A stretch of DNA of 64,000 nt from an uncultured bacterium (lineage in GTDB: Bacteria; Babelota; Babeliae; Babelales; Vermiphilaceae): assembly GCA_963713925.1 (NCBI GenBank), contig OY970212.1:1216001-1280000 (forward strand). Reading direction: 5' to 3'. The translations under genes and the position numbers were made by a program. This document shows, in pieces, positions 58,905 through 62,646 of the stretch; within the stretch, counting starts at the first letter, position 1; each line of letters begins with the position of its first letter. The notes under the pieces are model-generated. The model ran no database searches. It was given only the letters and a program-made list of their open reading frames with translations, and was not told the origin of the DNA.

Positions 58905-59005
58905 CATCCAAATGACGCTCCACGGCTTGAAAGCCGCGGTTTATGAACATGAATTGCGCCTTACATCACCGCGCTGAGGCACGGGGGTTTTACAGCGCGC
59001 AATAA
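58905..59005. mobile_element. Non-autonomous IS200/IS605-like miniature element (two hairpin ends only)
   Basis: ATCCAAATGACGCTCCACGGCTTGAAAGCCGCGG and GCGCCTTACATCACCGCGCTGAGGCACGGGGGTTTTAC hairpin ends, with no ORF between them. Confidence 0.55.
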
Positions 59006-59017
59006 ATACAATGTTAT

Positions 59018-59857
59018 TTATGTGAGCTCGCTTGATAATTTACCGCCATATTTGCGCACCAAATTTGCTGCGTGAGAATCTGTGTATATCAGCTCATCAA
59101 GAATAGTTGTCTTGCTATCAGGGTCAAGCTTGTTGAGCGTTTGCGCTAGTTTGCCGGCGATAGTCTGTATTTCATGTTTATCTACCCATTCAAGCGCAAG
59201 CATGGTTCCTCGCGCATCACACAAGTGACGAGGGTCTGCTCCTTTGGTCAAGAGATAATCGATGGCGGCTTCATTTTTGAGCAAGATTGCTTCCTGCAGC
59301 AAGTTGTTACCGGATGCATAAATTTCATCAATAGGCCAAAGCATCTCGGTCATTTCCTCATCTTCTTTTAAAAACTCGGCATGCTCGGGCGCATAGCTCA
59401 CTAAAGAATTATTTAAATCAGTTAGTGGATGATTTTTTAAAAAGTCAGCATGTTGGGTCAGTACGGTTACAAAGAAATCAACTACCGAACATTCAGAATC
59501 CTTCAAGCGATTTTTGCATCCTTCAAGCACGGCGCATTTTTCCTCTATAGTGTACCCGGGAACAAACAAAAGATCATATACACAGGTCAACACATCTTCC
59601 GGGTTCAATCTTTTAATATATTCATTAAGTTCGACTACAGGTCTGACTATAGGCTCTGAGTCAGTTTCTTTTTTGAAAGCGCGCTCGCTATAAGCAATGG
59701 GTGTTGATGGAGCTTTTTGTTGAACAACAACAGGAGCAGGCTGTTCTGGTTTGACCAGTGTTTGAGGAACCGGAGTCTGCTGACGGGGTTTACGTTGGCA
59801 CCCCGAAAAGCCGATTATGGCTATACACATATAGTAAATAGGAGAGATCTTTTTCAT
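59018..59857 (-). CDS. Lipoprotein with C-terminal ankyrin-like repeat
   Basis: Lipobox FSGC, Pro/Gln linker and GNNLLQEAI..IDYLLTKGADP. Confidence 0.7.
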   Translation of the reverse strand: MKKISPIYYMCIAIIGFSGCQRKPRQQTPVPQTLVKPEQPAPVVVQQKAPSTPIAYSERAFKKETDSEPIVRPVVELNEYIKRLNPEDVLTCVYDLLFVPGYTIEEKCAVLEGCKNRLKDSECSVVDFFVTVLTQHADFLKNHPLTDLNNSLVSYAPEHAEFLKEDEEMTEMLWPIDEIYASGNNLLQEAILLKNEAAIDYLLTKGADPRHLCDARGTMLALEWVDKHEIQTIAGKLAQTLNKLDPDSKTTILDELIYTDSHAANLVRKYGGKLSSELT

Positions 59858-60032
59858 TACAAGCTTCTTTTTTTAAATCGGATCGCAAGAGACTATGGGC
59901 TTTGTTGAGACGTCAAAAACAGATGAATAAGCCAGCTTTTTCAAGCAGTAAATTCGGTTTGTTTTGTTTGGGCTTTTTAACCTAGCACGAGTATATAAAA
60001 AAAGGGGACAAAAACAACAGTTTTTTGATAAA

Positions 60033-60076
60033 AAAAAGAGACGTGGAAAACAGGATAGTTTTCCACGTCTCTTTTT
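60033..60076. terminator. Strong hairpin, probable bidirectional terminator
   Basis: AAAAAGAGACGTGGAAAAC..GTTTTCCACGTCTCTTTTT. Confidence 0.7.
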
Positions 60077-60222
60077 GTGTAATTTTTTTAAATATTCTTA
60101 TTCTACTTCGCTGCCTAATGGCAGCTTCGAAGAACTCCGCGCTCAATGACTTTTCAATTAGAGCTTATACGAAAATTAAGCTTTCTAACTAAAAAGTAAT
60201 TGTGTTAAAAGTCAATTAATTT

Positions 60223-61164
60223 TTAAGCACTACATACTTCGCCCTTTTTCAAGATAACATTTGCAATGATGATCAGCTTTCGCATTACTGCAACAATAGC
60301 TACTTTAAAGCTTTTTTTGTTTGCTATTAGTCGATCATAAAAGGATTTTAAAGGAGCATAATACTTAATAGTCGTTATAGCACACATATATAATGCATTT
60401 CGAGGAATAATCCTACCGCCTTGAATGAACCGTTTGCCTGTATAGTTGCCACTTTCTCGATCGTAAGGACAAACTCCGACAAGGGCTGCTATTTCATTAT
60501 TGCTTACAGATCCAAGTTCAGGCACAAACGAAATCAATATCGCGGCCGAAGATTTACCGATTCCCGGGATTGATTCCAAAAGCTCTGTCCGTTTCTGCAG
60601 TACCGCATCTTGATCAATCAATTCTTCAATTTGTTCATCCAAAGCCTTGATCTCTTTATTTAAAAAGAGGATCATTCTTTCGATACTTGAAACACCGAGT
60701 GCATGCGAGGGGTGTTTAAGTCGAGTTTTTTCAGTTGCCAAAAATTTGGTCAAATCCTGCTTTCGATTAACCAAAGATAGCAATGTTTCTTGGTTATGAG
60801 TTCTGCTGACTGGCTCATAATCTTGAGAATTCTTCGATGCAAATTCAGCAATTTTTTGTGCGTCTATTTTGTCTGTTTTGCTTTTGCAACCAGTTGCGAT
60901 TATAAAACCCTTTATCCTCCGTGGATCAACTATCCAACAACTATAGGAATGTTCCTGTAATACCCGAGTAAGCAATTTTTCGTAACCACCGGTTGCCTCA
61001 CATGCAATTTGCTTAATACTGTAATTGGATAATTGCTTCACAAACTTTTTTATTCCGCTTTCTGTATTGGGTATTTTAACCCATTGCTTCAACGGATGAA
61101 TAAAAATGTCCAAATTGTTCTTTGAAATATCGACGCCGATAAATACTTCTGGTAGGGTAATCAT
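60223..61164 (-). CDS. IS110-family DEDD recombinase/transposase
   Basis: GVDISK, CEATGGY and KTDKID (D-E-D-D); SIPGIG and RESG (catalytic Ser); VAVMRKL. Confidence 0.96.
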   Translation of the reverse strand: MITLPEVFIGVDISKNNLDIFIHPLKQWVKIPNTESGIKKFVKQLSNYSIKQIACEATGGYEKLLTRVLQEHSYSCWIVDPRRIKGFIIATGCKSKTDKIDAQKIAEFASKNSQDYEPVSRTHNQETLLSLVNRKQDLTKFLATEKTRLKHPSHALGVSSIERMILFLNKEIKALDEQIEELIDQDAVLQKRTELLESIPGIGKSSAAILISFVPELGSVSNNEIAALVGVCPYDRESGNYTGKRFIQGGRIIPRNALYMCAITTIKYYAPLKSFYDRLIANKKSFKVAIVAVMRKLIIIANVILKKGEVCSA

Positions 61165-61165
61165 A

Positions 61166-61370
61166 AATACCTCATCCTTGTAAACATTCGAGGTCGTATT
61201 AATACGCCTCTAGTAATTGTTCGAGGTAATTTCGTATAAGCTGATAGTCTCAAACTTTTTAGCAATCGATTACGATTAGGGTTGGCGCGAGCTCTATCAG
61301 CTTTTCCCGAGCAACTAATTTGTGAAACAATATACCGATCACAAATTAATACATTATCTATCAAAATTTG
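61166..61370 (-). ncRNA. IS110 bridge RNA (5' hairpin, target-binding loop, donor-binding loop); ends approximate
   Basis: Stems at 61316-61325/61339-61348, 61238-61247/61294-61303 and 61168-61173/61223-61228; four loop segments match the target and donor sequences. Confidence 0.88.
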
Positions 61371-61564
61371 AATCAATTTTTAACATACAAGGGTTGGCTG
61401 TCAAGAGGCACTTGTTTCAGCAACTTGTCCGCCGTAGCTTACCAATCCTGAAAGCCTGGATAAGCGAAGGCTGGATCCATGTTAAGTAGATCCTGAAATA
61501 AATTCAGGATGACATAGCAATAAGGAACTTTCGGGATTTTCGGATAAGCTCTTAGATGAGCGCT

Positions 61565-61912
61565 TCATTTTCCGTACTGCTTAAAAATGGCACCCTTATA
61601 TCCTTCAACAGGAACATCTCGAGGCGCTTTGAAAACCGAACTTATTAACAATATTTCCTTCGACGCGTTGATCGGAAGCATAGAACCTTTATAAGTCCAT
61701 GAATCGTACATTGGATGTGTTCCTGAACGTACGCGCGTTGCTGATTGCATGCTTAATTTAATGATGCACGATTGTTTCGGCTCTATCTCAACATCTCCGA
61801 TTTTAACCGTAGCATCACAATCATTTTTAAAGTAGTAACTCTCACTGTCCGATTCTGAGCTGTACAGACTAGCTGTTGCAATAGTAAAAGCGAATATAAT
61901 CAGTTTTTTCAT
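61565..61912 (-). CDS. Hypothetical secreted protein
   Basis: AAGGA RBS and MKKLIIFAF signal peptide. Confidence 0.6.
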   Translation of the reverse strand: MKKLIIFAFTIATASLYSSESDSESYYFKNDCDATVKIGDVEIEPKQSCIIKLSMQSATRVRSGTHPMYDSWTYKGSMLPINASKEILLISSVFKAPRDVPVEGYKGAIFKQYGK

Positions 61913-62079
61913 AAATATCCTTAGTCTTAGCAGGGTTTGTTCATCTGAGCATACCGGTATTTATTACAAAGCCAAACGATCAGGTCGGGAGCAAGCTGTA
62001 CAAGCATTGTTTTTAGTCTGCGGAGAATGCTAGGGTAAATTTAGGCAAGAATAATAAAAATTTTTTTATAGGAGAATGT

Positions 62080-62646
62080 ATGAACGGTAACAATAATTTC
62101 TACAGGCCGACACTTGAAGAAATCAAAAAGAACTCCAGTTGGATCATTGGCTTGGGAATCGTTTCCATAATTCTCGGAACGCTTGCCATTATGTTTGCAT
62201 TCACGAGCACCGTGCTTTCAGTCATATTTTTTGGGTGTTTGCTGCTTTCGATAGGCGTTCTTGAAGGAGTTAAGTCATTTACCATTAAGCCATGGGGCAC
62301 CTTTCTACTTCATTTGATTTTAAGCGTGCTATTTGTGGTTGGCGGAATTTCAATTATTTTGTATCCAACCATTAATGCGATCACGTTGACCCTAGTGTTG
62401 GCAGCTTTTCTTGCCGTATCAGGCATTATGAAAATGATCTTTGCCCTCGTAAAGCAAGTTCCTCATAAATTTTGGCTCTTTTTAAATGGAGCTCTTGGGC
62501 TTTTGCTAGCTATTTTGATTTGGAAACAATGGCCATTCTCAGGTTTATGGGTTTTGGGAATGTTTATCGGTATTGATATGATATTCACCGGCTGGACATG
62601 GATCATGTTAGCCCTCGCTGCAAGAAAGAGCGCGCAAGGCAGATAG
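62080..62646 (+). CDS. HdeD/DUF308 membrane protein
   Basis: Six TM helices; WPFSGLWVLGMFIGIDMIFTGW. Confidence 0.88.
   Translation: MNGNNNFYRPTLEEIKKNSSWIIGLGIVSIILGTLAIMFAFTSTVLSVIFFGCLLLSIGVLEGVKSFTIKPWGTFLLHLILSVLFVVGGISIILYPTINAITLTLVLAAFLAVSGIMKMIFALVKQVPHKFWLFLNGALGLLLAILIWKQWPFSGLWVLGMFIGIDMIFTGWTWIMLALAARKSAQGR

Follow-up and report, generated by a model that had tools for sequence, protein, structure and literature searches.

An IS110-family element found in the 64,000-nucleotide stretch of DNA analysed here (the window) is very probably an intact and recently active insertion sequence of the IS110 group that works in the manner of IS621. It appears intact at the level of its sequence, and by analogy with IS621 it would be reprogrammable. 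Comparison of its copies with one another and with empty sites showed that its guides specify a position close to the right end of an IS5-derived MITE, and that the element was inserted independently and recently into three copies of this MITE, leaving no perfect site in the genome empty. The original prediction, made from the window, had proposed the recombinase and its RNA, and was silent on the host MITE, the three copies, the handshake bases and the junction promoter. The element and its gene were delimited as follows.

60195 to 61391, minus strand: IS110-family element, 1,197 bp, both CT cores included (61390 to 61391 left, 60195 to 60196 right)
60223 to 61164, minus strand: bridge recombinase ORF, 313 aa, with D12, E56, D98, D101 and S238 (based on PF01548, PF02371, NF033542, the IS621 structure 8wt6 and residue conservation)

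The ends of the element were defined by comparing its three genomic copies and the empty host sites. Three full copies were present in the 1.32-Mb genome, with 0 to 2 differences over 1,197 positions (99.8-100% identity) and identical RNA regions. The CT core was found at both ends in all three copies and as a single core at empty sites; the element has the IS110-family trait of lacking long terminal inverted repeats while repeating a short core at both ends. The left non-coding end is 227 bp long, in agreement with the region of about 225 bp predicted upstream of a 313-aa DEDD recombinase, and 28 bp separate the stop codon from the right end. The long RNA-bearing left end upstream of the ORF, the short right end and the short sub-terminal repeats assign the element to the IS110 group and not the IS1111 group. 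Downstream of the transposase, a 19-bp hairpin between A and T runs (60033-60076) is likely a bidirectional terminator. Contigs of two DNA runs, X1 and X2, covered parts of the element, with no circle joint among them, a result that speaks neither for nor against a circle. A 166-bp contig of run X1 was identical to the left junction of the window copy, and a contig of run X2 reads from the right end of the element into the sequence flanking the C1:678k copy; this organism, or a strain close to it, was present in runs of two studies.

The recombinase scored above the curated cut-offs of PF01548 (69 bits, cut-off 29), PF02371 (51.6, cut-off 21.3) and NF033542 (197.7, cut-off 140). Only two solved relatives were found, ISCro4 (9t56, E=1.8e-38, the best) and IS621 (8wt6, E=1e-37, 133 bits). 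Residues D12, E56, D98, D101 and S238-G239 were invariant in 111 aligned homologues and correspond to D11, E60, D102, D105 and S241-G242 of IS621, numbered as in PMC11208158. The original prediction had placed the protein in a poorly sampled lineage, which overstated its rarity: the best 120 protein clusters listed were all at least 59% identical to it, and the single cluster with a taxon name belonged to Candidatus Dependentiae. For the enolase encoded in the window, the 7 hits with a taxon name among the 120 listed all came from Dependentiae, Babeliales or Babeliaceae, and the host was assigned to this group on that basis. Relatives at E<=1e-60 were present in 18 of the 261 genomes of the phylum that were searched. 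A first metagenome scan found no relative of the recombinase, a second with the alignment as query found only 2 loci above 45% identity among the best 80, and viral contigs held distant relatives only (24-36% identity).

The left end is predicted to encode a bridge RNA with the following parts.

61165 to 61350, minus strand: predicted bridge RNA (folding, alignments and covariance model R1); its start may lie further upstream, behind the junction -10 box
61316 to 61348, minus strand: 5' hairpin with a perfect 10-bp stem (sequence and folding)
61238 to 61303, minus strand: target-binding loop, with a 10-bp closing stem, an inner 3 bp and a cap stem-loop
61168 to 61228, minus strand: donor-binding loop

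Folding of the left end, one of the checks proposed in the original prediction, gave z = -3.54, a stability that none of 200 shuffles equalled. When the guides were forced to be single-stranded, the 5' hairpin and both internal loops were retained at a cost of 4.5 kcal/mol. The predicted 10-bp hairpin at 61316-61348 is perfect, and the cap predicted for the donor loop also folds, with a 4-nt loop, although its 6-bp stem as first written has no loop. An RNAalifold run on 19 divergent sequences recovered donor-loop stems only; the target-loop columns were misaligned, and a hand-given structure was therefore counted on the 11 closest sequences. In these, 96.6% of 328 stem cells were paired against 30-41% in slid controls, and two-sided, compensatory changes occurred in 9 of 30 stem pairs against 2.7 in shuffled data; the structure was derived from the window element, which favours it over the slid controls, and kinship inflates the pair counts. 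A covariance model built from 11 clade members, R1, matched 19 of 23 held-out IS110 loci (IS621 being absent from these loci) just upstream of the ORF with E<=0.012. In the genome itself R1 gave three matches, which were the three copies, and no orphan or divergent bridge RNA was found among the 150 of 430 candidates scored. A scan of 59000-62500 with Rfam 15 returned 14 weak matches, all below the gathering scores and none over the RNA; a family for the IS621 bridge RNA was not found in Rfam 15.

Within the two loops the guides and handshake bases were located at the following positions.

61278 to 61286, minus strand: left target guide (LTG), 9 nt including the core, an exact match to the flank that covaries across elements
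61255 to 61261, minus strand: right target guide (RTG), 7 nt (core plus 5), with the further matching base 61262 lying on the G-Y linker
61253 to 61254, minus strand: target-loop handshake guide, whose first base would pair with donor position 7 after strand exchange
61212 to 61220, minus strand: left donor guide (LDG), 9 nt, exact match (supported by element comparison)
61177 to 61182, minus strand: right donor guide (RDG), 6 contiguous nt, exact match (supported by element comparison)
61175 to 61176, minus strand: donor-loop handshake guide, whose first base G would pair with target position 7 (C) after strand exchange

All four guide matches that had been predicted were exact: the LTG at 61278-61286 equals the flank 61390-61398, the RTG at 61255-61262 is the reverse complement of 60189-60196, the LDG at 61212-61220 equals 60195-60203, and the RDG at 61177-61182 is the reverse complement of 61386-61391. 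When the left end was shuffled 20,000 times with its dinucleotides preserved, the guide words occurred at frequencies of 0.0002, 0.008, 0.0012 and 0.040; two of them occurred together in 0.0006 of the shuffles, and three or four never did.

Covariation of guides and targets, also proposed originally as a check, was examined across relatives. Nineteen distinct elements with 39-100% identity were collected. Conserved end motifs set their boundaries, invariant scaffold bases together with the core located the guides, and 16 elements were kept for the count. E13 was left out because its left end was not found, and E17 and E18 because their ends were non-CT or their guides could not be extracted; one E08 copy cut by a contig end, 7 duplicate loci and fragments were also left out. 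At LTG positions 1-7, 78.3 of 112 weighted cells agreed with the cognate target against 36.4 when permuted, and RTG positions 10-14 covaried as a block with 58.7 of 80 against 27.6; neither value was reached in 20,000 permutations (maxima 66.9/112 and 46.9/80), and since the elements are kin these p-values overstate the evidence. Taken alone, target position 1 (5.1/16, p=0.33) and target position 14 (7.8/16 against 4.9, p=0.08) were not significant, and the fit of guides to targets was poor in several relatives (E09, E10, E11 and one copy of E05). All 16 elements had a donor-loop handshake base complementary to target position 7, against 7.9 when permuted, and the pairs G-C, C-G and T-A were all seen. 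The target-loop handshake base was complementary to donor position 7 in 15 of 16 elements, a donor base that varies in only 2 of the 16. This handshake rule is the one described for IS621 in PMC11208158.

Three relatives displayed deviating ends or sites. One of five E05 copies (L149, G156:C6) lies at a site which the right guide matches and the left guide matches at only 1 of 7 positions, and is a natural half-match insertion; it presumably lies inside another transposase gene, with a putative integrase-core motif. For E17 (L138, L148 and L154 in G073, 41% identity) no CT core in the same register accommodated the ends and guides, which may reflect a different core or shifted boundaries. In the left end of E04 (L127, G120:C9) the first 18 bases were tandemly duplicated, and its right-end -35 box was degenerate.

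All three copies of the element interrupt the identical position of one non-coding repeat, which in the window is split as follows.

61392 to 61551, minus strand: host MITE, left part, with a terminal repeat at 61537-61551, a TAA duplication at 61552-61554, a palindrome and a nested REP-like insert
60161 to 60194, minus strand: host MITE, right part, with a terminal repeat at 60161-60175 and a TAA duplication at 60158-60160

The repeat was found at 28 merged loci in the genome; it is mostly 140-240 bp long and has 15-bp terminal inverted repeats. Both ends were found at 21 loci, of which 15 had identical 3-bp flanks, 14 of them TTA or TAA. In genome G101 the same 15-bp end motif, with TAA flanks, bounds an autonomous element of 864 bp (L164) encoding an IS5 transposase (NF033580, 145.7 bits, cut-off 110), and for this reason the host repeat is, from its sequence, an IS5-derived MITE. 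The MITE end motif was detected in 57 of the 261 genomes of the phylum. Several genomes, from different families, had it in abundance (at least 10 hits), often as pairs lying 150-400 or about 860 bp apart, and the IS5 and MITE family is apparently widespread across the phylum. Long MITE copies contain a REP-like palindromic insert (61426-61474 in the window) with a dozen or more other matches in the genome, so that a REP-like repeat, a MITE and an IS110 element together form a three-level nesting. A small repeat at 60098-60154 adjoins the MITE and has 94-100% matches at C1:470886-470942, 991079-991116 and 1217325-1217359.

The three host MITEs are 196, 196 and 143 bp long and differ from each other at 11-16 of 143-196 aligned positions (6-8%), far more than the element copies do, and the insertions were therefore independent and recent. 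Copies at unrelated sites, which the original prediction had named as speaking against it, were not found: both other copies lie at the same target with one G:T wobble, two copies having A for G at target position 1. The left target of IS621 tolerates such a wobble (PMC11208160).

The target near the right end of the MITE probably comprises 14 nt (7 + CT + 5). With wobble allowed at position 1, the genome contained three perfect 14-nt sites, all occupied, and no empty one. Ten other sites matched the first 11 nt, 7 of them in MITE copies and 4 of them matching 13 nt, and all ten were empty; thirteen empty sites had one further mismatch in the 14 nt, and most MITE near-misses differed in the length of the T-run. 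The difference in occupancy between the perfect sites and the ten 11-nt sites (p=0.0035) or the four of the 13-nt class (p=0.029) counts three events only, and the empty sites could have slipped after the insertions. This pattern supports a role for the seventh right-guide base in vivo, and suggests that the genome offers the element no further targets. Two relatives, present in 5 and 3 copies, had 0 and 1 empty 14-nt sites, respectively, by exact search, and near-saturation of targets may be common.

A putative promoter was identified which forms only when the two ends of the element are joined.

60210 to 60215, minus strand: -35 box (TTGACT) in the right end, part of a promoter with 17-bp spacing that forms only in the circle junction
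61382 to 61387, minus strand: -10 box (TATGTT) in the left end
60203 to 60210, minus strand: sub-terminal inverted repeat, right arm, 8 bp
61378 to 61385, minus strand: sub-terminal inverted repeat, left arm, 8 bp

The same geometry (-35 box, 16-17 bp, -10 box) was the best-scoring junction-spanning pair in 17 of 18 elements, one of them with 16 bp, and the predicted sigma-70 promoters had 9-10 of 12 consensus bases. The 8-bp sub-terminal inverted repeat brackets the donor site. A hybrid promoter of MITE and element sequence at 61404-61376 was unsupported, as a promoter scan gave 2 sites against 4.9 expected. IS621 uses a promoter reconstituted at the circle junction (PMC11208158). If the present element follows IS621, it would form a circle in which the right-end -35 box and the left-end -10 box are joined and transcribe the bridge RNA. 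A recombinase tetramer would then read the 14-nt site with the target loop and the junction with the donor loop, cleavage would proceed through the DEDD residues and the serine, and strands would be exchanged at the CT core, assisted by one handshake pair per loop.

Several other accounts of these data were considered. The RNA might read more than 14 nt, through a right guide of 8-9 nt, through pairing of a third, linker-borne guide with the MITE terminal repeat, or through both, a reading which we regard as very unlikely. A longer right guide would agree with the 8-nt match in all three copies, 9 nt in one of them, and with 9 nt in the relative E02. Positions 15-16 showed no covariation, however (6/32 matches against 7.3 permuted). 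The eighth RTG match, correct as sequence in the original prediction, probably occupies no guide position: it falls on a linker base, because an invariant G lies nine bases ahead of where the right guide ends, a spacing shared with G72 of IS621, which is followed there by U73 and the guide at 74-80, and G72-U73 form a structural linker (PMC11208158). The working RTG is thus probably 7 nt and the target 14 nt, with the seventh base supported mainly by the in-genome occupancy, where three insertions are counted. The third guide was suggested by the following segment.

61230 to 61242, minus strand: last part of the target-loop stem with the inter-loop linker, 13 nt that recur unchanged in the right terminal repeat of the MITE

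An identity of this length was reached in 0 of 1,000 shuffles, and the MITE repeat lies about 20 bp downstream of the core. Against a guide function, 5 of the 13 nt are locked in the 10-bp stem, the clade consensus linker already resembles the MITE repeat, and E02 and E05, which have other targets, carry linkers matching MITE copies of the window genome over 13 and 15 nt; none of 17 other elements matched its own downstream neighbourhood at the linker over more than 8 nt. Neither the 8-9 nt right guide nor the linker as a guide was supported by these cross-element comparisons, and the 13-nt identity, noticed after the fact, is probably a scaffold coincidence. It is highly improbable that the linker serves as a third segment for recognition or preserves sequence acquired from the target; if true, bridge-RNA recognition would reach past the 14-nt footprint, and there would be a hint of how guides are reprogrammed naturally.

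The residence of all three copies in MITEs with terminal repeats, two of the three occupied MITEs with intact 3-bp duplications, would also fit a composite unit of MITE and IS110 element moved by an IS5 transposase, with the IS110 element inactive here. The host MITEs differ in length and by 6-8% while the element copies are nearly identical, and an IS5 transposase for the MITE was not found in the 95.75%-complete genome by searches with PF01609, PF13340, PF13586 and the cognate protein, which makes such a unit extremely improbable. A shorter, processed left-end RNA of the seekRNA type, loops from separate molecules, or half-match copy-out routes, each in place of one full-length bridge RNA, is a more serious though still unlikely proposition. 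Alternative models have been published for the family (PMC11187229, 10.1101/2025.10.25.684509, 10.64898/2026.08.31.748434), loops from two RNA molecules within one complex are described in PMC11208158, and only the right guide matches the site of the L149 copy. These models would alter the form of the RNA and the route of excision but not the logic of the guides, and both loops and the linker were conserved together in the 19 aligned elements. An IS110-group element with an IS621-type bridge RNA is the preferred reading. The IS621-type architecture of the original prediction is borne out by the family scores, the catalytic residues, the covariation in 16 elements and the compensatory stem changes; every feature of an IS621-type bridge recombinase that was tested was found in the sequence.

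The likeness to IS621 of E. coli (PMC11208160, PMC11208158; PDB 8wt6) extends to the RuvC-like DEDD domain and the Tnp-domain serine, a left-end RNA with 5' hairpin, target loop and donor loop, the CT core in all four pairings, the junction sigma-70 promoter (predicted here), the handshake base at position 7, the G:T wobble in the left target and insertion into an intergenic repeat. The 313-aa recombinase is nevertheless distant in sequence (133 bits against 8wt6), its RTG naturally matches 7 nt where that of IS621 matches 4, extendable to 7, the 3' strand of its donor loop is 2 nt longer (12 nt from invariant G to guide end against 10), and its sub-terminal inverted repeat has 8 bp against about 3. 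Its target is an IS5-derived MITE and not a free REP, and its host belongs to Candidatus Dependentiae. ISCro4/IS622 shares 14-nt recognition of target and donor, the CT core and handshake guides (10.1101/2025.05.14.653916; PDB 9t56); it has been tested in human cells, whereas the window element is AT-rich in both guides and known from sequence. Landing in a MITE with an internal palindrome is shared with IS1111 of Coxiella burnetii, of which 20 of 21 copies lie in QMITE2 (PMC5896051). IS1111 represents the IS1111 group, with a right-end RNA and long sub-terminal repeats, in contrast to the IS110-group element described here, and the present MITE is traceable, through its identical ends, to an IS5 transposase. 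The host repeat shares the 15-bp terminal repeat and the TAA/TTA duplication with L164 and so resembles IS5-family (NF033580) elements and MITEs; it is the target of the window element and not the element itself.

The mechanism, extended right guides, handshake bases and targeting of MITE and REP sequences are already published; longer right guides in natural orthologues and REP targeting were reported in PMC11208160, and 14-nt recognition by ISCro4/IS622 together with a screen of 72 orthologues in 10.1101/2025.05.14.653916. No paper on IS110 in Dependentiae was among the open-literature matches listed. The searched part of the supplements of PMC11208160 contained neither the donor guide of this element nor the taxon name, and the element may still be in that database. 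Mechanistically the element adds nothing beyond the publications of 2024, and its value is that of a clean natural example. With fully complementary guides, a natural 7-nt RTG, a 313-aa protein and a defined target it is a candidate for ortholog screens. It also documents an IS110 clade in Candidatus Dependentiae. The genome amounts to a small natural test of specificity, in which only perfect 14-nt sites are filled and one further mismatch leaves a site empty in all 13 cases. If this occupancy pattern holds, the element has no targets left, and new ones would have to arise by T-run slippage in MITE copies, because the MITE transposase was not found.
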